A stretch of DNA of 39,582 nucleotides from a virus, in the IMG/VR virus record IMGVR_UViG_3300045988_038540; one strand, given 5' to 3'. Below the pieces are notes generated by a model. It had not been told where the DNA came from, made no database searches, and was given only the letters and a program-made list of their open reading frames with translations. Both the position numbers and the translations under genes were made by a program. This document shows, one piece after another, positions 3,302 to 39,582 of this stretch (positions are counted from its first letter, which is position 1; every line of letters begins with the position of its first letter).

Positions 3302-4006
3302 TTAGCAGCCGCAGCCGCAGGGGTTGCAGCCACATCCGGCATAAGGATTGGGCACCTGATAGGCCGGGACAGGCATGGGATTGATTCGGCGGATCAGCTC
3401 GGCAGTCTGCGCTTCCTGGTTGGCGGTGAAGAAAGCGTTCTGAGCCGCCTGAGAAGCCTGGAACTTCAGGCTCTGGTTTTCAGCCGTCAGAGTAGCGATC
3501 TTGTCCTGGGTCAGGAAGTCCAGGATCGCTCTGCTGTTGGCGTTGGCGTTGTCGATGATGTCCCGCGTGCTGGACTGGATGGTGTTGCGGGTATCGCAAG
3601 CCTGAGTAGCCATGTTGTAATTCACGCCATCAACTGCCCGCTGGGTCTGGCAGCAGCAATCCTGCAGCTGATACCCCAGATTACAGATGGAATTATCAAC
3701 ACTGTGGAAACCGTTGCTCACGGCATCCCGGATGGAGGTCTGGCCGTTCTGGAGACCGTTCAGGGCGAAGCCCTCGTTGATGTCGGCCCTGGTGGCCCAA
3801 CCCTGACCAGAGGGAGAACCCAGGCCATTGCCGGAGTTACCACCCCAGCCGCCGCTATAGCCGCCCCAGCCGAACATGCCGAAGATCAGGAACAGGATGA
3901 TCCAGGAGGCCCAATCGCCGCCCCAGCCGCCGAAACCGCCGTTTCCGCCCTGATAGGCAGGAGTCACGGGCATGGTCATCACAGCGCCGTCAGAAGAAAG
4001 ACTCAT
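3302..4006 (-). CDS. Gly/Trp-rich single-pass membrane protein with an Asn/Gln-rich helical region and a C-terminal GCGCNPCGCGC tail (cargo gene e)
   Basis: AAAGGAGA RBS; GGNGGFGGWGG-TM(WASWIILFLIFGMFGW)-GGYSGGWGG; CCC motif; Cys-rich C-terminus. Confidence 0.7.
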   Translation of the reverse strand: MSLSSDGAVMTMPVTPAYQGGNGGFGGWGGDWASWIILFLIFGMFGWGGYSGGWGGNSGNGLGSPSGQGWATRADINEGFALNGLQNGQTSIRDAVSNGFHSVDNSICNLGYQLQDCCCQTQRAVDGVNYNMATQACDTRNTIQSSTRDIIDNANANSRAILDFLTQDKIATLTAENQSLKFQASQAAQNAFFTANQEAQTAELIRRINPMPVPAYQVPNPYAGCGCNPCGCGC

Positions 4007-4058
4007 TGTGTTATCTCCTTTGTAGATTTATTTTCAAAACCCGGCCGGGATTTTGATT

Positions 4059-4098
4059 AAATGGTTTGAAATGGTTTAATAAATGGTTTGGAAATGGT
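4059..4098. repeat. Four phased AAATGGT(TT) direct repeats (starts 4059, 4069, 4081, 4092)
   Basis: Read directly; about one helical turn apart, in the 145-bp gap between cargo genes d and e. Confidence 0.8.
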
Positions 4099-4114
4099 AA
4101 GTACACTTTGCAAA

Positions 4115-4158
4115 TTCACTTCACATTCTGCGGAAAGTGAAGTTCACTTCTTCACTTC
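4115..4158. repeat. TTCACTTC x3 with an ACTTCAC/GTGAAGT inverted repeat
   Basis: TTCACTTC at 4115, 4143 and 4151; 7-bp stem 4118..4124 / 4137..4143 just downstream of the stop of gene d. Confidence 0.7.
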
Positions 4159-4373
4159 CCAAACATTCCCCGCATCCCTTCAAACACACCTGACATCTGC
4201 TGGGCCTGCTTTTGGACCTGGTTGAGCTGGTCCTGAGTAATGCGGCCAGAGGATACCATCTCTTGTATCATGGCGTTGGGGTCTTTGCCCCGCATCTGCT
4301 GCATGAAGGATTGAAACTGCTGCATCATGTTGGGCTGTCTGTTGCCGCCCATTGCCTGGAAAAAGGGGTTCAT
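4152..4373 (-). CDS. Small Gln/Met-rich hypothetical protein, 73 aa (cargo gene d)
   Basis: AAAGGAGGA RBS; ATGA overlap with the upstream gene. Confidence 0.65.
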   Translation of the reverse strand: MNPFFQAMGGNRQPNMMQQFQSFMQQMRGKDPNAMIQEMVSSGRITQDQLNQVQKQAQQMSGVFEGMRGMFGK

Positions 4374-4840
4374 TCCGCATCCTCCTTTGTGGTTGTTTTC
4401 TTTGTGGTTCTGACAGGCATCTCCTTTACCACTGTTAGCTCATTCAGACGAGCCTCCAGAGCTTCCACGCGGGATAGTGGTGCATACTCTACTACAGGAG
4501 GCTGTGAAGCCTGCACAGGCTTTTGAGTGCGCTCCACAAGATCATAGACTTTGATGGACGGCTTGCCAGAAGCGTCTGCTTGCTTGAGATAGATGGTGGG
4601 AGCGTTGCTGTCCCAAAGCGCCACAGCACTGTTGGGGGCCACCAGATAGGCCATTGCCTCCGCTTCCCCGCTCACCCATACCATGCTTTGCCCACCAGTC
4701 TGCGCCTGCTGGGGCTGTACCTGCGGAATCTGCTGGGGAATGGGCTGATACTGTGCCCCACGAAGCTGTGCAAGCTGATCCGCCATAGGCGGCTGATAAT
4801 ACGGCTGATAGCCGGGCATATATTGATATGGCACTAACAT
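4370..4840 (-). CDS. Hypothetical protein with a Pro/Gln/Tyr-rich N-terminus, 156 aa (cargo gene c)
   Basis: ATG at 4840 forms an ATGA overlap with the stop of the upstream gene; MLVPYQYMPGYQPYYQPP... Confidence 0.6.
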   Translation of the reverse strand: MLVPYQYMPGYQPYYQPPMADQLAQLRGAQYQPIPQQIPQVQPQQAQTGGQSMVWVSGEAEAMAYLVAPNSAVALWDSNAPTIYLKQADASGKPSIKVYDLVERTQKPVQASQPPVVEYAPLSRVEALEARLNELTVVKEMPVRTTKKTTTKEDAE

Positions 4841-5220: not shown

Positions 5221-5443
5221 CGTACAAAAGCTCATTCTGTCGGATAAACCGTTCCAATCCGGAGAAGTCTCCCTCCGCCGCATACTTCTCGCAGGTGTCT
5301 CTTGCTGTGGACTCCGTGAAGCCGCAGGCCACCAGCCGGGCCACCAATTCAGCACCATTCAAAATCAAATCAAACACGTCCTTATCAGTGAAATCAGGAG
5401 GCCGCAAGGAGGGTGGCGACGTGTACCAGCCCTTGATCCTCAC
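5198..5443 (-). CDS. Hypothetical protein, 81 aa (cargo gene a); start uncertain
   Basis: GTG at 5443 is only 2 nt after AGGAGG, so spacing is poor; first gene after the divergent intergenic region. Confidence 0.4.
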   Translation of the reverse strand: MRIKGWYTSPPSLRPPDFTDKDVFDLILNGAELVARLVACGFTESTARDTCEKYAAEGDFSGLERFIRQNELLYDDRKQYV

Positions 5444-5559
5444 GTCCTCCTATTGATATTGTCGCATAAAAAAACTTCCGCTGGGTGGCATCTATGTGGG
5501 AGATATGAGGGGAGTGTGTATTATGTATGCTGGTATCTGAAGAATTTTGCAAAAATGTG

Positions 5560-5689: not shown

Positions 5690-6277
5690 ATGGGAAGGGC
5701 AATGGTCTTTATTGATTTTGAAAACTTCAATATCGCTATGATGAATTATTATCGCAAAATCGAGGAACCTACTGCCAGATTAGATTATAATAAGTTCCCA
5801 CAGAAAATTGTCAGCCTTCTTCCAGGGAACCATACCCTTGAAAAAACTTTCTTGTGTGCCCCAAAGCCAGATGAATTTCTTATGCAGGATGAGCGCAGGA
5901 AAAATACATATAACTGGATAAATGGGTTGAAAAATCAAAAATATTTTACCGTAATCGAAGGGCAGCATATCGCTCGGAAGGTTTATGGGAAGGAAATGGA
6001 TATTCATGACAAGTCAACTTATTATGTAGAGGAAAAAGGAACCGACACCAACATGGGGGTTCATTTAATAGCAAAAGGCTTTTTAAATGCGTATGATGTT
6101 GCTGTTATTGTGAGCGGAGATAGCGATTATATTCCGGCGCTTGAAATTCTGAATACTATCGGGAAAATAACTGTTGTTGTGGGTGTAAATGGGCAAAATA
6201 TGACTAAACTTAAAAATTGTTCTGATGATGTGCTTATCTTAGATAAAGCCTTTTTCGACGAATGCCTACGAGTATAA
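5690..6277 (+). CDS. NYN/LabA-like (PIN-fold) nuclease domain protein, 195 aa
   Basis: GGAGGG RBS; VFIDFENF, EEKGTDTNMGVHLI and VIVSGDSDYIPAL match the Asp-containing NYN (PF01936-type) motifs; visibly AT-richer than its flanks. Confidence 0.8.
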   Translation: MGRAMVFIDFENFNIAMMNYYRKIEEPTARLDYNKFPQKIVSLLPGNHTLEKTFLCAPKPDEFLMQDERRKNTYNWINGLKNQKYFTVIEGQHIARKVYGKEMDIHDKSTYYVEEKGTDTNMGVHLIAKGFLNAYDVAVIVSGDSDYIPALEILNTIGKITVVVGVNGQNMTKLKNCSDDVLILDKAFFDECLRV

Positions 6278-19700: not shown

Positions 19701-19744
19701 CCAAATAAAAAAGGAGCCAACCTGCAAGAAACCCTTACAAGTTG
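19701..19744 (-). terminator. Possible minus-strand-specific hairpin plus U run after the RHH gene
   Basis: CAACUUGUAAG/CUUGCAGGUUG: 11 bp with two G-U pairs on the minus RNA only (C-A mismatches on plus); U6 starts 5 nt after the stem. Confidence 0.35.
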
Positions 19745-19790
19745 ACCCCAACGGTCCTTCCCGCTCACCAATTAGAGCAGGGTTCAGTGT

Positions 19791-20017: not shown

Positions 20018-20083
20018 TGTACAATCCGCACAATATATATGGTTAAACTTTGTGAAATTTGCCGCTTGAATATATGGTTAAAC
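20003..20083. repeat. Three copies of TATATGGTT(T/A)AAC (20003, 20036, 20071); candidate RHH operators
   Basis: Read directly; spacing 33 and 35 bp; copy 3 extends to the palindrome ATGGTTaAACCAT. Confidence 0.75.
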
Positions 20084-20094
20084 CATGTTATATT
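20066..20094 (+). promoter_or_regulatory. Candidate promoter TTGAAT-N17-TATATT
   Basis: Operator copy 3 fills the spacer; about 50 nt upstream of the 20144 ATG. Confidence 0.5.
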
Positions 20095-20143
20095 ATACTC
20101 ACAAGGAACAAACAAGACAGGCCACAGGCCGGGAGGGAAAGAA

Positions 20144-20302
20144 ATGACAAACCAAGAAATCCTTGATACTTTAGCCGAAAATGAATGCAAACTCTTTTAC
20201 GCATACTGCGCAGACAGAGAAAACCTTGGATTGAAGGCGGCGCACGAAGCCGCAAAGCAAGCCTTGATTGCATTTGCAAACGCTACCGGCTGCCACAACT
20301 AA
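20144..20302 (+). CDS. Small hypothetical protein, 52 aa
   Basis: ATG follows GGGAGGGAAAGAA; opposite strand to the structural operon. Confidence 0.5.
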   Translation: MTNQEILDTLAENECKLFYAYCADRENLGLKAAHEAAKQALIAFANATGCHN

Positions 20303-20347
20303 ACCAACCACCCGCCCCGGAGGTCACGAGGGCAGAAAGGGAAAAAG

Positions 20348-20545
20348 ATGAACAACACGAGATTTAACAAGTTGTGGGATTTATTGCACAAGTCCGGGGA
20401 AGTCAAGTTCGCTGATTGCAACGAATCTCTCTCGCTATCGCTCGTCCCATCCAGATATGGGTATGAAGTTTCTCTGCGCTCTGGTGGAAGCACGGTTCTT
20501 GTGCACTATGACAAAGAAAGATTTCGTGAAATATTAGTTGACTAA
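20348..20545 (+). CDS. Small hypothetical protein, 65 aa
   Basis: ORF with a weak purine-rich RBS; followed by a terminator. Confidence 0.45.
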   Translation: MNNTRFNKLWDLLHKSGEVKFADCNESLSLSLVPSRYGYEVSLRSGGSTVLVHYDKERFREILVD

Positions 20546-20555
20546 TGCCTTTCTT

Positions 20556-20583
20556 CCGCCCCTAACCGGGGCGGTTTTCTTTT
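20556..20583 (+). terminator. Rho-independent terminator of the plus-strand cassette
   Basis: CCGCCCC/GGGGCGG stem followed by TTTTCTTTT. Confidence 0.7.
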
Positions 20584-36259: not shown

Positions 36260-36846
36260 TCTTCGCACCACCAGATATCCGCCGTTTTTACTCCCAGTGA
36301 TAAGGCTTCCTGGTGCTCCTTGACGGCAATGTCAATGTGGTCTTCCTTGACTGCCGTCCCGGTATCATCCGCCCGCAGATAGGCCATCTCGCCGTTGTAC
36401 TCGATCATGATGGTGCTGCCCAGCGGTATAATGTCCGTATCCACGGCGCAGCTCACATAGGGCGTTACACGCCTGCCGCTGGCTGTGATGCCGGAGCCTG
36501 TCCCACAGATGTGGGGCCGTTCCTCGCAGCAGTAGAAGGTGATGGTCACGTCCTCCAGCTTGTGAGACCGGGCCAGCAAAGCGGCTTCGATCAGCTCATT
36601 TTCGGCGGCCTCCATCTCTTCCCCTGTCAGATAACAGCGAGTGGTGGCCGTGGTATTGTCGCCAGGGAGGCTGCCGTCTTCCGCGGTGGGGTCTGGCTTG
36701 TGCATAGCGGGTAGTTCCGCTTCCACCGTCATAATCAGGTAGCTTCCCAGCCACGCCAGCAGAAGTAATAGGAACAGAAGATATGTAATCAGCTGCAACC
36801 GCCTCTGGCTCCGGCGGCGCCGCTCTTCCCGGGTCAGTTTCTTCAT
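36256..36846 (-). CDS. Membrane-anchored 3D-domain (MltA/RlpA-like double-psi barrel) protein
   Basis: ATGA-coupled start at 36846; Arg-rich N-terminus plus TM; [12 protein letters not shown]...[15 protein letters not shown]. Confidence 0.7.
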
Positions 36847-37628
36847 AGGATGTGCCTCACCGCTTCTTCGCGGGTGATATAGAAATGGATGCCCGTGCTG
36901 CACTCGTGCCAGCGGTTTTCGTCGAAATCCGAAACGGAGACCACAGTTCCGGGAATGTAATGGAAGTTCTTATCTCTATCACTGACGGCGGCCTGCTCCA
37001 ATGCATTCCCCTCTAAATCCTGAATCTCCAAAACGGTTGCCTTTGAGCAGCGGCACTCCCGGCCTGCTGCGGAACTGCGCACGGCATCTTCGGTAATTTC
37101 CAGCTTTACAATGCACTCATGACCGCTGGTTTTGGCCCTTGCCTTTTTCCAGCCGACAAAAGCGCCGATTTCCGGGCAGGCAATGGGATAAAATAAATTT
37201 TTTGCCTTTTCAATGTAGTCGGCCCCGAACAGGTTGGCCCTGGACAGGTTGGCCCCGGACAGGTTGGCCCCGGACAGGTCGGCCCCGAACAGGTTGGCCC
37301 TGGACAGGTCGGCCCTGGACAGGTTGGCCCCGGACAGGTTGGCCCCGAACAGGTTGGCCCCGGACAGGTCGGCCACGAACAGGTTGGCCCCGGACAGGTT
37401 GGCCCTGGACAGGTTGGCCCCGGACAGGTTGGCCCCGGACAGGTCGGCCCCGGACAGGTTGGCCCCGAACAGGTTGGCCCTGGACAGGTCGGCCACGAAC
37501 AGGTTGGCCCCGGACAGGTTGGCCCCGAACAGGTTGGCCCCGAACAGGTTGGCCCGTTTTCCGCCATTTTCGCCTCGTATCCATTTAAGGTGCTTGTCCA
37601 AAATATTTTTCAACTCTTGTTTGTCCAT
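36843..37628 (-). CDS. Pentapeptide-repeat protein (22 repeats) with a DUF5758-like C-terminal domain
   Basis: A(N/D)L(F/S)(G/R/V) x22; C-terminal [12 protein letters not shown]...[14 protein letters not shown]. Confidence 0.85.
37224..37553. repeat. Tandem 15-bp repeat array (coding for the pentapeptide repeats)
   Basis: Units such as GGCCCCGGACAGGTT / GGCCCCGAACAGGTT / GGCCCTGGACAGGTC differ at only 1-3 positions; open in four frames. Confidence 0.9.
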
Positions 37629-37631
37629 GCG

Positions 37632-37916
37632 TTATTCCTCCTTGTAGGTTTCCCGGAAGCTGCCTTCGGGGAAATCGAACTCCACGGTGAAATGATGGTG
37701 CCGCTCGTTGATGGAGACCACCCAGCACCGTCTAGGGCCGTTTTTTTCTTTCATGAATGCGCTGGTGTCCAGTGTAGGCGTCATGTACAGTACGTCTCCG
37801 ACTTTCACCGCTCTCCCTCCATCCAGGAAAGGAAGCGCATGAACCATGACGTAGCCGTACAAATGCCGATTAAAGCAAAAATGTATGTACTCATTTTTAT
37901 CTCCCTGCACGCACAA
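37632..37916 (-). CDS. Hypothetical protein; start uncertain (alternative: GTG at 37808 giving 58 aa)
   Basis: The TTG at 37916 lacks an SD; GGAGGGAG sits 4-7 nt before the GTG at 37808. Confidence 0.45.
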   Translation of the reverse strand: MCVQGDKNEYIHFCFNRHLYGYVMVHALPFLDGGRAVKVGDVLYMTPTLDTSAFMKEKNGPRRCWVVSINERHHHFTVEFDFPEGSFRETYKEE

Positions 37917-38148
37917 ATCGGATTATTTCGTCATCAGTCAGTGACAAAACCTTATCTAAGGCGCTAATATCATCCAACCACCATTTGCGCTTTCCGCTTA
38001 GTTTCATAGAGATATTAGATTGGGTCATTCCAGCCAATTCTCCCAGGTCCCGATCGGTATACCCCATACGTCCTCCGGCAGAACGAAGAATCCTCGCCCT
38101 CTGTTCACATGGGGGAACAGAAAACCTGCTTAGTTTTGTTCGCGCCAT
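37897..38148 (-). CDS. HTH DNA-binding protein, 83 aa
   Basis: AAGGAGGA RBS; YTDRDLGELAGMTQSNISMKLSG. Confidence 0.65.
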   Translation of the reverse strand: MARTKLSRFSVPPCEQRARILRSAGGRMGYTDRDLGELAGMTQSNISMKLSGKRKWWLDDISALDKVLSLTDDEIIRFVRAGR

Positions 38149-38158
38149 GATTTCCTCC

Positions 38159-38187
38159 TTGATTTTCCCTTTTGGAGGCGATATACT
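38159..38187 (+). promoter_or_regulatory. Candidate promoter TTGATT-N17-TATACT (antisense to the early operon)
   Basis: 38159..38164, 17-nt spacer, 38182..38187. Confidence 0.5.
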
Positions 38188-38193
38188 GTATCC

Positions 38194-38262
38194 AAAGGGA
38201 TTGTTCGTGGTTGCTCAATCCTTGCCCGTCTGACTGCTGGTAACGGTCAGGCGGGATTTTTT
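38194..38262 (+). ncRNA. Candidate ~70-nt antisense small RNA A (stem-loop plus intrinsic terminator)
   Basis: Hairpin 38195..38223; terminator CCCGUCUGACUG/CGGUCAGGCGGG (38225..38255) with two G-U pairs that form only on the plus RNA, then U6. Confidence 0.45.
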
Positions 38263-38524
38263 ACACATCTTCCGGGTACGCACTGGATACCAGTTCTTTC
38301 AGTTCCATCAAGTCGATGCCGGGATCATGTGCCGCCCGGTCCAGAATCAGCTCCTTCAACTTGGGGCCAGCACCTTCCAGTGCCTTGCGGTAATCTTCAA
38401 ATGTGTAATCCATGTGGGCCTCCTCCCATGTGCGGCCTTTCCAGGCGAGACAGAGATTGTCCATAAGACGATTGGTGTTCCTTGCCTGCCTTTCAAGGGC
38501 TTGAATGCTGTCTTTTTCGTTCAT
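38261..38524 (-). CDS. Hypothetical protein, 87 aa
   Basis: AAGGAGG RBS. Confidence 0.65.
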   Translation of the reverse strand: MNEKDSIQALERQARNTNRLMDNLCLAWKGRTWEEAHMDYTFEDYRKALEGAGPKLKELILDRAAHDPGIDLMELKELVSSAYPEDV

Positions 38525-38534
38525 AAAAACCTCC

Positions 38535-38563
38535 TTGTCATTTGACCCGGAGGCGTGTATAAT
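38535..38563 (+). promoter_or_regulatory. Candidate promoter TTGTCA-N17-TATAAT (antisense to the early operon)
   Basis: 38535..38540, 17-nt spacer, 38558..38563. Confidence 0.55.
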
Positions 38564-38569
38564 AACCTC

Positions 38570-38644
38570 GCGGGCCTGTTGGCGCTTTCAATAGGTTCCG
38601 CAGCCCTCGTCGGTGGTGGTGCATCGGCGGGGGCATCTTTTATT
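38570..38644 (+). ncRNA. Candidate ~75-nt antisense small RNA B, or a terminator-containing leader of the 38694 gene
   Basis: Imperfect hairpin 38572..38601; terminator GCCCUCGUCG/CGGCGGGGGC (38603..38634) with two plus-only G-U pairs, then AUCUUUUAUU. Confidence 0.45.
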
Positions 38645-38693
38645 GTCCTTTCTCCATGGATGTGATAGGATGGGGGAGAAAGGAGGTGAGATA

Positions 38694-38873
38694 ATGGATC
38701 GTTCTAAAAAGTACGCAATCGAAGCCGCCAAAGAAATTACCGTAGCTGTTATGAGCGAAGGTAATCTGCGTGTAGATAAAGCGGGCGGAGAAAGCGTAGG
38801 GGACTTCTTTCAAGCGGTTTATTCTAAAATTGAAGAAATCGCAAAAGATGTTCCCGGTCTTGGCAATCAGTAA
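38694..38873 (+). CDS. Small hypothetical protein, 59 aa, encoded antisense to the early operon
   Basis: AGGAGGTGA RBS 5 nt upstream; possible own promoter TTGTCC-N17-TAGGAT (38643..38671). Confidence 0.55.
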   Translation: MDRSKKYAIEAAKEITVAVMSEGNLRVDKAGGESVGDFFQAVYSKIEEIAKDVPGLGNQ

Positions 38874-39016: not shown

Positions 39017-39253
39017 TTACCCCTCATCATGATCCGAAAGAAGCTCGTCTACGGTGACGCCGTAGAGCTTTGCGATTGCAGGGAGCATACTAGCTCTAGG
39101 AAGTGATCCGCCCTGTTCTCTCTCCCAAAGGCAAACAGCAGAATCGGAAATACCAAGTCTGTCCCCAACCTCCCTTTGTGAAAGACCCGCTTTTTCCCTG
39201 CATTCCTTAAATCTCAAAATTTCACCCCCAAAACGCTTAATATTACTTGACAT
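39017..39253 (-). CDS. XRE-family HTH protein, Cro-like first gene of the early operon (start 39253 or GTG 39265)
   Basis: FKECREKAGLSQREVGDRLGISDSAVCLWE...; no SD, so possibly a short or leaderless mRNA. Confidence 0.75.
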   Translation of the reverse strand: MSSNIKRFGGEILRFKECREKAGLSQREVGDRLGISDSAVCLWEREQGGSLPRASMLPAIAKLYGVTVDELLSDHDEG

Positions 39254-39412
39254 TTTGGGCTGCACCGCTTAATATTGAATTGTCAGGACAATAGAAAACG
39301 GTGCAAGCCCAATATTAAGTGGGCCTGGTTTTTTGCGGCTAAATCACTTAACAATATTAAGTATAAGGCATATGCAGCTTAATGTCAAGTCCCTTTTCTT
39401 AATTTTATTAAG
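39234..39412. promoter_or_regulatory. Genetic-switch operator array
   Basis: (G/A)CTTAATATT at 39235 and 39267 (direct) and as AATATTAAG(T) at 39311 and 39353 (inverted); CTTAAT at 39378; perfect palindrome CTTAAT-TTT-ATTAAG at 39398..39412. Confidence 0.7.
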
Positions 39413-39431
39413 TGATTTTGAAGAGGACTTT

Positions 39432-39582
39432 ATGGACATTATTTTTTTCCTTTCTCAAATTGATCGTCTTCGTAAAGAGAGAAAACTAACAAAAGCAGAA
39501 TTTTATGAAAGAGCAGATATAACGGCATCCGCAGTATCCCAATGGAGGAACGAAAAAACTGTTCCGGCAGAAACAACTATAC
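39432..39582 (+). CDS. XRE-family HTH protein, 5' part (60 aa in total, continues at 96..124 across the circular junction); candidate lysogeny repressor
   Basis: ATG after GAAGAGGA; MDIIFFLSQIDRLRKERKLTKAEFYERADITASAVSQWRNEK...; same strand as the integrase. Confidence 0.7.
   Translation, partial: MDIIFFLSQIDRLRKERKLTKAEFYERADITASAVSQWRNEKTVPAETTI
39488..39582. repeat. Terminal direct repeat copy 2 (identical to 1..95)
   Basis: See copy 1. Confidence 0.9.

Follow-up and report, generated by a model that had tools for sequence, protein, structure and literature searches.

Portable promoter, hairpin and terminator cassettes opposing the early operon of gut temperate phages: candidate antisense RNAs with hypervariable loops

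Introduction

Among temperate phages, antisense RNAs have been described in a few enterobacterial model systems. The overlap of lambda OOP with the cII coding sequence is about 55 nt. In c4 a few loop bases decide the immunity specificity between related phages. In the antisense RNAs of plasmids, recognition starts at the loops, and loop mutations alter the RNA together with its target, giving rise to new incompatibility groups. OOP acts on the cII mRNA via RNase III, ant is under the control of sar, and c4 RNA has a modulating role in phage immunity (PMC12197685). In Salmonella, the antisense RNA STnc6030 of the BTP1 prophage provides phage-specific exclusion, and single SNPs within the paired stretch allow escape; the RNA excludes the same phage and not a relative (PMC7067206).

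The sequence analysed here is a 39,582-nt IMG/VR virus record (IMGVR_UViG_3300045988_038540) from a gut temperate phage, the whole of which is referred to below as the window. An initial annotation of the region 38159-38644 proposed two look-alike units on the plus strand, antisense to the early operon, each with a promoter, a stem-loop and a strand-specific terminator. This region was compared with about 180 related phage loci. The predicted strand-specific promoters and short terminated transcripts would fit an antisense sRNA of the OOP or sar type. On the basis of the comparison, we consider that sRNA-A (about 69 nt) and sRNA-B (about 75 nt) are probably independent cis-antisense sRNA genes that regulate the early transcript, and we put the probability of this at roughly 0.55.

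Organisation of the locus

All parts of both proposed units are found at the positions claimed. Both cassettes are antisense to the early lytic operon and they bracket an 87-aa gene. The features are as follows.

37897..38148, minus strand: 83-aa HTH gene (ORF), which on the early strand comes after cassette A
38159..38187, plus strand: promoter P_A, TTGATT-17-TATACT, from a consensus scan
38194..38262, plus strand: predicted sRNA-A, about 69 nt, with a 5' hairpin, an intrinsic terminator and then AU6
38196-38223, plus strand: 5' hairpin of sRNA-A, loop UUCGUGGUUGCU
38225-38255, plus strand: terminator A, CCCGTCTGACTG / CGGTCAGGCGGG, 12-bp stem with loop 38237-38243, then AT6 to 38262
38261..38524, minus strand: ORF of the 87-aa early gene between the cassettes, the presumed regulated gene
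38535..38563, plus strand: promoter P_B, TTGTCA-17-TATAAT, 11/12 consensus matches
38570..38644, plus strand: predicted sRNA-B, about 75 nt, with a 5' hairpin, a terminator and a U-rich tail
38570-38601, plus strand: 5' hairpin of sRNA-B, core stem 38575-38582 with 38588-38595, hypervariable loop 38583-38587
38603-38634, plus strand: terminator B, 13-bp stem with hypervariable loop 38616-38621, U-rich tail to 38644
38643..38873, plus strand: 59-aa unit separate from the sRNA, with its promoter at 38643-38671 and gene at 38694-38873

Products of about 70-75 nt had been predicted, and the lengths predicted here agree with this. RNA A (69 nt) has a folding energy of -31.3 kcal/mol (z = -5.3) and RNA B (75 nt) one of -43.5 kcal/mol (z = -5.8). 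Folding of the minus strand in these gaps is far poorer (z = -2.7 for A and -2.3 for B). The stems of terminators A and B are the two longest on the plus strand of the whole window. Promoter-like sites occur at a density of about one per 1.6 kb of strand, and the chance that each terminator would have such a site on its own strand, with its end 38-40 nt upstream, is about 1e-4 by our estimate. The comparative evidence described below is far stronger than this estimate.

A search of Rfam 15 over 38159-38644 gave no match at gathering thresholds, nor at E <= 5, and no CI/Cro operator motif was found within the cassettes. No close DNA relatives were found in INPHARED, and a host search in GTDB genomes returned one uncultured bin and nothing more. 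A coding function was considered and rejected: a 36-aa plus-strand ORF starts within the -10 box and is disrupted by loop indels. Since the loop indels (6 versus 7 nt) would disrupt any reading frame, the cassettes are taken to be non-coding.

The 87-aa protein has no Pfam or PHROG match, and tblastn against INPHARED found nothing. It is hydrophilic and its AF2 model (pLDDT 87.5) is all-helical; a Foldseek search with this model against PDB and BFVD gave no fold match. The C-terminal 50 residues correspond to a widespread small early phage protein, and the protein is not recognisable as an antirepressor. A type I toxin-antitoxin system was rejected, because the protein is hydrophilic and all-helical, there is no conserved small hydrophobic ORF, and the only plus-strand ORF is interrupted by the loop indels. 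The 83-aa gene has weak HTH_31 and PHROG repressor-like matches.

It had been suggested that cassette B may act as an attenuating leader for the 59-aa gene. The U-tract of terminator B is indeed interrupted (AUCUUUUAUU) and may leak, the gene starts only 50 nt further on, and an inverted repeat (38646-38655 with 38675-38684) would mask the SD of this moron in read-through transcripts only. However, the moron has its own promoter, read from the sequence as TTGTCC-17-TAGGAT with an extended -10. Equivalent promoters (TGG-TAGAAT, TGG-TATACT) travel with different plus-strand genes in related loci, and none is present where the gene is absent. Cassette B is moreover unchanged in relatives that have no plus-strand gene and where a cro-like gene abuts the terminator, and there is no plus-strand ORF downstream of cassette A. 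The leader function is therefore not upheld, and it is very unlikely that B serves as a leader or attenuator for the 59-aa gene, or more generally that the cassettes serve plus-strand morons.

Conservation and covariation in related phages

Promoter P_A is kept in about 47 IMG/VR contigs, as TTGATT/TTGCTT/TTGTCC, a 17-nt spacer and TATACT/TATAGT/TATAAT. P_B occurs as TTGTCA/TTGCCA/TTGACA, again with a 17-nt spacer, and TATAAT/TATACT/TACAAT/TAATAT. Cassette B is located upstream of nearly every recoverable homologue of the 87-aa protein (86 loci, 65-100% amino acid identity). Both cassettes persist when their outer neighbours change, and cassette A is retained in relatives despite unrelated genes at the position of the 83-aa HTH gene. 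The promoter, 5' hairpin and terminator are thus kept across phages with different flanking genes, which supports their annotation as genuine antisense sRNA genes.

Conservation and covariation in related phages had been named as a check on the proposal. Promoters and stems are conserved, and the two RNAs differ in how far their stems covary. In B, 93-94% of stem cells are paired, compared to 35-54% in slid controls, and two-sided changes are seen in 9 of 21 pairs in a MAFFT alignment and in 15 of 21 in an alignment fitted to the covariance model (CM). None of 500 shuffles reached the observed pairing or covariation score. The sRNA-A hairpin is 94% paired yet near-invariant (helix 1 only). Terminator A is swapped in relatives for 3-4 unrelated stems, the commonest of which, CCCTCGTCGTG/CACGGCGGGGG, again contains two G-U pairs. 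G-U pairs are also kept in the alternative stems of B.

The assignment to the plus strand had been argued from two G-U pairs in each terminator stem. Two are present in A, and two in the 10-bp core of B (three in its full 13-bp stem). The same asymmetry is seen in every homologue, so that the argument is valid across the family. The plus strand has the lower minimum free energy (MFE) in 46/46 distinct B sequences (mean -41.7 versus -25.5 kcal/mol) and in 17/17 distinct A sequences (mean -28.6 versus -20.0 kcal/mol). The minus strand is thus the weaker in 63/63 sequences, because the G-U pairs turn into C-A mismatches. These results bear on the proposal that the elements function in the early mRNA, in 5'-UTR processing, antitermination or translational control, with the plus-strand signals being incidental. 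The elements do occupy long UTRs of early genes, and a conserved SD-sequestering hairpin accompanies the cassettes (see below). Such a function would nevertheless leave the consistently poorer folding of the message strand to be accounted for, as well as the conservation in three cassette types (A, B and C) of -35 and -10 hexamers at 17-nt spacing together with a T-tract, and we regard it as having little probability.

The description of the two cassettes as look-alikes applies to how they are built and to portions of their promoters and terminators. It does not extend to the RNA bodies, since a covariance model of B has no match to A; promoter and terminator pieces alone are common, and a sequence-paralogous or duplicate origin was therefore rejected. 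Rather than one duplicated element there are two differing types, and by sequence comparison A and B are two of at least three types of portable cassette (A, B and C). Type C cassettes are located before other early genes in relatives. Chenonceau, an inducible prophage of Flavonifractor plautii YL31, carries a perfect type C cassette on the minus strand of ON453904.1 (5772-5911). In the lysogeny region of phage Chenonceau only low CM scores of 23-24 bits were obtained, which carry no reading because any hairpin plus terminator reaches that level.

Near-identical cassettes of about 110 nt occur between unrelated genes, and mosaic breakpoints coincide with the cassette ends. Both observations would be expected if the cassettes were linker DNA at module junctions, aiding homologous exchange between mosaic phages, with no function as RNA. 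Linkers, however, have no need for compensatory stem changes, strand-specific G-U pairs, promoter geometry or T-tracts, and their spread by recent recombination predicts identical loops and not the hypervariable ones described below. We therefore think it most improbable that the cassettes are linkers only.

Relation to the early transcript

Both sRNAs are perfectly complementary to the early mRNA, in gaps which are untranslated apart from a stop codon overlap in A. Predicted sRNA-A is complementary to the 3' UTR of the early transcript, overlaps the 87-aa gene by its stop codon only (38261-38263), and reaches to about 30 nt before the next SD. Predicted sRNA-B is complementary to the 5' UTR of the 87-aa gene, about 45-120 nt upstream of the AUG, and stops about 33 nt short of the SD (SD 38530-38536; start site about 38570). 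Neither sRNA-A nor sRNA-B overlaps a ribosome binding site.

The initial annotation noted that each -35 box overlaps the reverse complement of an SD. This is so by 2 nt at each cassette (CCTCCTT, 38154-38160 and 38530-38536). The overlap is not essential: in divergent relatives the two elements are at least 8 nt apart, and the conservation of P_A extends to contexts in which no SD abuts the -35 box. Around each -35 box there is an inverted repeat, which would form a hairpin in the early mRNA.

38154..38178, minus strand: inverted repeat around the P_A -35, CCTCC 38154-38158 with GGAGG 38174-38178, sequestering the SD of the 83-aa HTH gene
38530..38553, minus strand: inverted repeat CCTCC...GGAGG around the P_B -35, an mRNA hairpin sequestering the SD of the 87-aa gene, followed by U5-AUG

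The P_B repeat is present in groups 2 and 3 as a conserved 7-bp ATCCTCC/GGAGGAT. In type C it is 8-10 bp long, with a compensatory change from C-G to G-C. The P_A-type repeat is conserved where an SD abuts the promoter, and GGAAG is found instead where none does.

An sRNA-driven switch, in which pairing releases an anti-SD that then closes the SD hairpin, was considered and rejected: constrained folding forms the SD hairpins of both downstream genes either way. The P_B SD hairpin is predicted to form with a probability of about 1.0, with or without sRNA pairing. Sequestering the region complementary to the sRNA makes no difference to these hairpins in the prediction, which thus lends no support to a simple structural switch. 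The hairpin plus U5 before the AUG of the 87-aa gene was also considered as an attenuator; by thermodynamic folding it is likewise predicted with or without sequestration. There is no U-run in type C at the position of the U5.

The position of the promoters suggests a further explanation, namely that what matters is the firing of a convergent promoter and the resulting RNA polymerase occupancy or collision (transcriptional interference or insulation), with the RNA as a by-product whose length the terminator limits. Near-consensus convergent promoters are found within the translation-initiation region of the next early gene, the promoter is the most conserved segment of the cassette, and the switch region of the same phage already has a face-to-face promoter pair. 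This would account for the promoters and leave unexplained the covarying 5' hairpin of B, the presence of hairpins at both ends, as is typical of stable RNAs, and loops that are hypervariable and yet poor in A. It is in our view an improbable explanation, though a better one than linker DNA.

Hypervariable loops

The two loops of sRNA-B are hypervariable. Loop 1 has a diversity of 0.56 differences per site, compared to 0.052 at third codon positions of the adjacent gene and 0.005 per site in the P_B promoter (group 1). Type C loops behave likewise (0.51 versus 0.03). Among 80 pairs of loci in which the 264-nt gene is 100% identical, 62 have different versions of loop 1 and 58 of the terminator loop. 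When the window is compared with loci having the same neighbours on both sides, 3 of the 6 differences from L014 in about 880 nt, and 5 of the 8 from L001, are within the 5-nt loop. There are 37 loop alleles among 179 copies. Only 6% of loop bases are A, compared to 22% in the plus strand of the window. The loops are thus variable but constrained.

Mosaicism at module boundaries was rejected as the source of this variation, because the loops differ despite the same neighbours and an identical gene. Inversion of the loop was also rejected, there being no reverse-complement pair among the listed alleles. The hypervariability could in part represent very old alleles that have been reshuffled by recombination, and not ongoing selection. 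In sRNA-A a single hairpin loop allele is dominant, accounting for 31 of about 47 copies, and within the close group the loop of terminator A does not vary, so that any argument on specificity is limited to types B and C. Within this limit, the hypervariable loops suggest allele-specific recognition between RNAs.

The partner need not be the early transcript. Portable units with hypervariable loops, found in many gene contexts, could be trans-acting sRNAs or decoys engaged in a loop arms race with host mRNAs, host defence (for example as CRISPR-repeat mimics) or competing elements, and the conserved sRNA-A loop would suit a conserved partner in trans. Searches for such partners argue in the other direction. 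A search of about 3 kb to each side of 81 cassettes revealed no site that is complementary to the B loops or co-varies with them, and across the 39.5-kb genome the sRNA-A loop has 3 matches against 2.98 expected, none above chance. A mimic of a CRISPR repeat, or RNA anti-CRISPR, would need a conserved loop to match a fixed repeat, and not a hypervariable one. A function in trans seems doubtful to us, and we return to cis-antisense regulation as the preferred reading.

Proposed mechanism

We propose that each sRNA is transcribed from a sigma-70-type promoter opposing the early operon, and carries a 5' stem-loop and a strand-specific intrinsic terminator. Pairing with the early message would start by contact between loops and extend into a duplex of 70-75 bp. 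This duplex may be cut by an enzyme of the RNase III type, or the early message downstream of cro may be otherwise destabilised or blocked. The outcome would be that the 87-aa gene and later genes stay off under weak early transcription, whether in the lysogen or from a related phage entering the cell. On induction, strong early transcription would override the convergent promoters.

The specificity determinants would be the two loops of sRNA-B. The extreme diversity of the loops would then follow, because a change in a loop alters the RNA and its cis target together, so that each allele would still recognise its own target and would no longer recognise those of others. Kissing of the classical kind, which takes place between two stable loops, cannot be taken for granted, since the C-A mismatches weaken the target hairpins of the minus strand.

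As a tentative extension, which we hold with considerably less confidence than the cis-antisense function itself, the cassettes may be portable RNA 'lock-and-key' modules, each comprising a structured UTR and a matching antisense RNA for the early gene that follows. The A-poor hypervariable loops of B and C would act as recognition codes, kept diverse by negative frequency-dependent selection, and a prophage would silence relatives that share its loop alleles. This would amount to RNA-based heteroimmunity or exclusion on top of CI/Cro in gut Oscillospiraceae phages.

If the loops do set pairing specificity, they constitute a natural record of RNA-based phage-phage competition that can be read from sequence, a source of orthogonal antisense regulators for synthetic biology in anaerobes, and a new immunity-type marker for gut viromes. 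If they do not, hypervariable and A-poor loops still need explaining.

Comparison with known systems

The cassettes represent a family-level case in Firmicute phages of the human gut. These phages are uncultured apart from a single relative in culture, Flavonifractor phage Chenonceau, which resides in an OMM12 strain. To our knowledge there is no described counterpart of a compact portable cassette with its promoter inside the SD hairpin of the next gene, and we know of none for loops close to diversity saturation amid invariant surroundings.

Lambda OOP, a 77-nt antisense RNA transcribed from pO between cII and O, resembles the cassettes in having its own promoter (constitutive in OOP), convergent to the early operon, and a hairpin plus intrinsic terminator. 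OOP is positioned just after the gene that follows cro, which is matched by sRNA-A; sRNA-B abuts the 3' end of cro in relatives. OOP acts by duplex formation and cleavage by RNase III (PMC12197685), as is proposed here for sRNA-A and sRNA-B. In contrast to OOP, the overlap is here almost purely with untranslated sequence. There is also no sequence or Rfam relationship, each phage has at least two such RNAs, the loops are hypervariable, and the host is a Firmicute.

P22 sar and P1/P7 c4 are likewise small antisense RNAs by which temperate phages regulate an early or immunity gene, and the logic of specificity by loops in c4 is the one proposed for the loops of sRNA-B. However, sar covers the ant ribosome binding site whereas sRNA-A and sRNA-B cover none, and c4 is processed from the sense transcript and has targets on the same strand, whereas the cassettes have their own promoters on the opposite strand. 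Because of this promoter arrangement, and because a search over about 3 kb revealed no second complementary site, assignment to the P1/P7 c4 or P4 CI type was rejected.

The copy-control RNAs of plasmids (ColE1 RNA I, R1 CopA, pT181 RNA I and pIP501 RNA III) are also comparable, being constitutive, about 70-140 nt long and composed of stem-loops, with complementarity to an essential transcript in its leader. Their specificity logic is the one we propose for the loops, and two of them, pT181 and pIP501, come from Firmicutes. The plasmid systems regulate replication initiators, often by attenuation, whereas here the target would be a phage early operon and the cassettes are repeated and portable; at the hairpin and U5 of the 87-aa gene, thermodynamic folding does not predict sRNA-dependent switching.

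STnc6030 differs in being about 500-800 nt long and antisense to late structural genes, and is not a compact cassette of promoter, hairpin and terminator. Natural allelic hypervariability has not been described for it, unlike the B and C loops. It nevertheless provides the direct precedent for selection that diversifies pairing sequences.

Genome and early operon

The window is a circular temperate siphovirus genome whose unit is 39,487 bp long; its ends share a 95-bp overlap, and a cI-like gene spans their junction. Almost all of its genes lie on the minus strand. Judged by the large terminase (67.5% identity), the nearest cultured relative is Flavonifractor phage Chenonceau, a prophage that has been induced from F. 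plautii YL31 (PMC10197239).

Features of the lysogeny genes, switch region and early operon
1-95 and 39488-39582: identical ends (by sequence identity), indicating a circular or terminally redundant contig
609-1712, plus: integrase, lysogeny gene
From 39432, plus: cI-like HTH gene, lysogeny gene
39247-39275, plus: promoter TTGACA-17-TAATAT towards the cI-like gene, in the switch region
39388-39360, minus: early promoter TTGACA-17-TATACT towards the cro-like gene, start of the leftward early operon
39253-39017, minus: cro-like HTH gene, first in the early operon
After the cro-like gene in the early operon: 45-aa ORF
Between the 45-aa ORF and the 87-aa gene: gap with the plus-strand 59-aa gene and cassette B
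38524-38261, minus: 87-aa gene of the early operon, followed by cassette A
38148-37897, minus: 83-aa HTH gene, after cassette A
After the 83-aa HTH gene in the early operon: genes for a pentapeptide/DUF5758 protein and a 3D-domain protein
Among the further early genes, after the 3D-domain protein gene: Gp157-like protein and DnaB-like helicase

The two promoters of the switch region (39236-39432) stand face to face, a 186/P2-like geometry, and transcripts from the two would share an overlap of about 80 nt. The motif CTTAATATT/AATATTAAG occurs four times within 39236-39361 (at 39236, 39268, 39311 and 39353), and these copies are probably CI/Cro operators. The motif CTTAATATT is absent from the cassettes, and the cassette promoters are therefore probably constitutive.

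Several other elements of the window are worth recording. The DNA of the pentapeptide-repeat/DUF5758 fusion gene (36843-37628, minus) is one long array of imperfect repeats of about 15 nt each, and a homologue occupies the same place in relatives (3837-4508 in the related locus L023). A RAGATH-31 RNA (5397-5450, minus; 75 bits, above the gathering score) adjoins the gene of a NYN-domain protein (5690-6274, plus). A gut-2 RNA (19713-19784, minus; 51.9 bits) lies between late genes, at the strongest minus-strand terminator-like hairpin in the window (17 pairs and T6). Inside the minus-strand late region there are a plus-strand 87-aa ORF (20039-20302) and a strong plus-strand terminator (20556-20574, 7 G-C pairs), with plus-strand promoter-like sites nearby; 20039-20574 may be another moron, that is, a plus-strand gene such as the 59-aa gene.

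Signals and folding of the cassettes

The initial annotation described two plus-strand units of promoter, hairpin and terminator, and this observation is confirmed as a whole. Promoter and terminator scans return exactly the elements proposed for cassette A (promoter 38159-38187, terminator to 38262) and cassette B (promoter 38535-38563, predicted product 38570-38644). The terminators are the two longest plus-strand terminator stems that the scan found in the window, their stems contain the G-U pairs described, and each -35 box overlaps the reverse complement of a Shine-Dalgarno (SD) sequence by 2 nt. The predicted products, sRNA-A (69 nt, z = -5.3) and sRNA-B (75 nt, z = -5.8), each consist of a 5' hairpin and a terminator hairpin, while the opposite strand of both gaps folds poorly. 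Plus-strand specificity, which had also been proposed, extends to relatives, the plus strand being the more stable in 46/46 B and 17/17 A sequences. The alternative that the functional elements lie on the mRNA strand is contradicted by this asymmetry of folding.

Conservation among related loci

Through the 87-aa protein, 86 related loci were gathered from IMG/VR and metagenome assemblies, many with a human gut label. Nearly every recoverable homologue (65-100% amino-acid identity) has cassette B upstream, and cassette A lies 3' of the gene in the two closer groups. The cassettes are kept in place while their outer neighbours change: B is preceded by a moron, by a different moron or directly by the cro-like gene, and the genes after A differ between relatives. 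B in the divergent groups has its -35 box (TTGCCA) 8 nt from the SD, and one variant of A has no SD adjoining its promoter; from this comparison, the cassette promoters are more than a by-product of the SD sequences.

The initial annotation had also suggested that B may act as a leader for the 59-aa gene. This is contradicted twice, in that the gene has its own promoter (38643-38671, plus; TTGTCC-17-TAGGAT with a TGn extended -10; unit 38643-38873) and relatives keep B without any plus-strand gene. A similar promoter stands before different morons in relatives. An inverted repeat (38646-38655 with 38675-38684), which covaries in relatives (CCTTTCGCC with GGCGAAAGG), would mask the SD of the 59-aa gene only in transcripts reading through from the promoter of B.

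Conservation and covariation were examined in these relatives: both cassettes are conserved, and B covaries. Among 46 distinct B sequences, 93% of cells are paired, versus 40-54% with slid partners, nine pairs of the stems have changed on both sides, and none of 500 shuffles equals the observed pairing or covariation score. With a model-fitted alignment of 61 distinct copies of B and of a third type, C, 15 of 21 pairs have changed on both sides. Hairpin A is 94% paired and conserved but almost invariant, and so has little covariation to offer. In relatives, terminator A is swapped for three or four unrelated stems; the one seen most often, CCCTCGTCGTG/CACGGCGGGGG, likewise contains two G-U pairs.

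The 87-aa protein itself gave no functional clue in Pfam, PHROG or a comparison of its AF2 model with PDB/BFVD. Its C-terminal 50 residues (motif ALEGAGPKLKELILDRAAHD) also occur widely in gut prophages as a small early protein in their own right. This protein adjoins HTH_17 and replication genes (P0044, P0051, P0065), at loci with no antisense cassettes.

A portable family of cassettes

A covariance model of B matches only B in the window. Cassette A is therefore not a sequence paralogue of B, and the earlier view of the two as duplicates does not hold. In relatives the model found type C, which is always antisense to the early operon and stands before other early genes. Its own promoter, with an extended -10, reads TTGCGG-17-TA(T/C)AAT. 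When IMG/VR was scanned by pattern, type C turned up in 41 contigs, where a core of about 110 nt hardly varies and precedes four or more genes unrelated to one another; about 47 contigs carry type A, and only 18 of them have an 87-aa-like gene beside it. Chenonceau carries a perfect C-type cassette (ON453904.1, 5772-5911, minus). The deposited annotation overlays small hypothetical CDSs there (5837-5950, minus), and an unannotated plus-strand gene starting 'MSD' appears to begin directly after the cassette.

In types A, B and C the -35 box lies between the arms of an inverted repeat, CCTCC...GGAGG, of up to 10 bp. This repeat includes the SD of the following early gene and on the early mRNA is predicted to form an SD-sequestering hairpin. 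A constraint on the repeat is supported by type C, where a C-G pair has been replaced by G-C through one compensatory change. Variants compatible with G-U pairing occur on the mRNA strand for A and, for C, on the opposite one.

Variability of the loops

Diversity at cassette B, as mean pairwise differences per site in 40 close loci (>=94% amino-acid identity)
38583-38587, 5-nt loop of hairpin B (loop 1): 0.56
Third codon positions of the gene adjoining B: 0.052
Promoter B: 0.005
5' stem of hairpin B: 0

In 80 pairs of loci the two copies of the 264-nt gene are 100% identical; 62 of these pairs have different alleles of loop 1 and 58 have different alleles of the terminator loop of B (38616-38621), and the alleles of the two loops reassort. 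L014, a related locus with the same moron and the same gene, differs from the window at 6 positions over about 880 nt, and the loop accounts for 3 of these; against L001, likewise with the same moron and gene, 5 of 8 differences are in the loop. A module-boundary effect as the source of variation is ruled out, the loops differing with the same neighbours on both sides. In type C the loop has 0.51 differences per site versus 0.03 in the adjacent 27 nt, which lie outside the search pattern.

There are 37 alleles of loop 1 among 179 copies. Adenine makes up 6% of their bases, against 22% on the plus strand of the window, and is never at loop position 1. Judged by these patterns, variation in the loops is either tolerated or driven, yet constrained. 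Since the close group shows no variation in the terminator-A loop, and a single allele dominates the A hairpin loop, hypervariability does not, in the copies compared, extend to the hairpin loops of these phages in general.

Pure recombination linkers would have no need of the compensatory changes, and predict identical loops. Transcriptional interference, with the RNA incidental, would leave unexplained both the covarying hairpin and the constrained yet variable loops.

Proposed mechanism

The sequences establish the promoter and terminator of the cassettes, their structure and strand, their conservation and portability, and the way their loops behave; we infer that the sRNAs are produced and that they base-pair with the early transcript. 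On the simplest model, that transcript is under cis-antisense control. The loops would initiate pairing, leading to a duplex of 70-75 bp, which would be cleaved, or the message downstream of cro would be destabilised, as in the precedent of OOP (PMC12197685). Loop alleles would define orthogonal specificities, because a loop mutation alters RNA and target at once, and their diversity may come from selection for evading the antisense RNA that a related resident phage would make; escape by single SNPs has been shown experimentally for STnc6030 of BTP1 (PMC7067206).

Some observations count against the antisense model. Neither sRNA covers a ribosome binding site (RBS), folding predicts no change in SD accessibility on sRNA binding, the hairpins on the target strand lose stability to C-A mismatches, and sRNA-A does not share the variable-loop pattern. 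Trans-acting RNAs or decoys are a further alternative, for which a search for a phage-borne partner found none. Every alternative considered here is weaker than the antisense model. The initial interpretation, a duplicated layer damping early lytic expression, is partly supported: conservation, covariation (in B) and strand specificity stand, while the paralogy of A and B and the leader role do not.

Comparison with known systems

An Rfam search of the cassettes matched no family, even at E <= 5, and so gave no sequence membership in the OOP, sar, STnc6030, c4 or plasmid copy-control RNA families; on this evidence they are an uncurated RNA family. We know of no published description of their architecture or of their loop hypervariability. 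Two features that help to define the known systems, an overlap with an RBS or a coding region and an origin by processing of the sense transcript, are lacking in the cassettes. The resemblance is functional, the units being comparable to OOP, sar and STnc6030, and their specificity logic resembles that of c4 and the plasmid copy-control RNAs.
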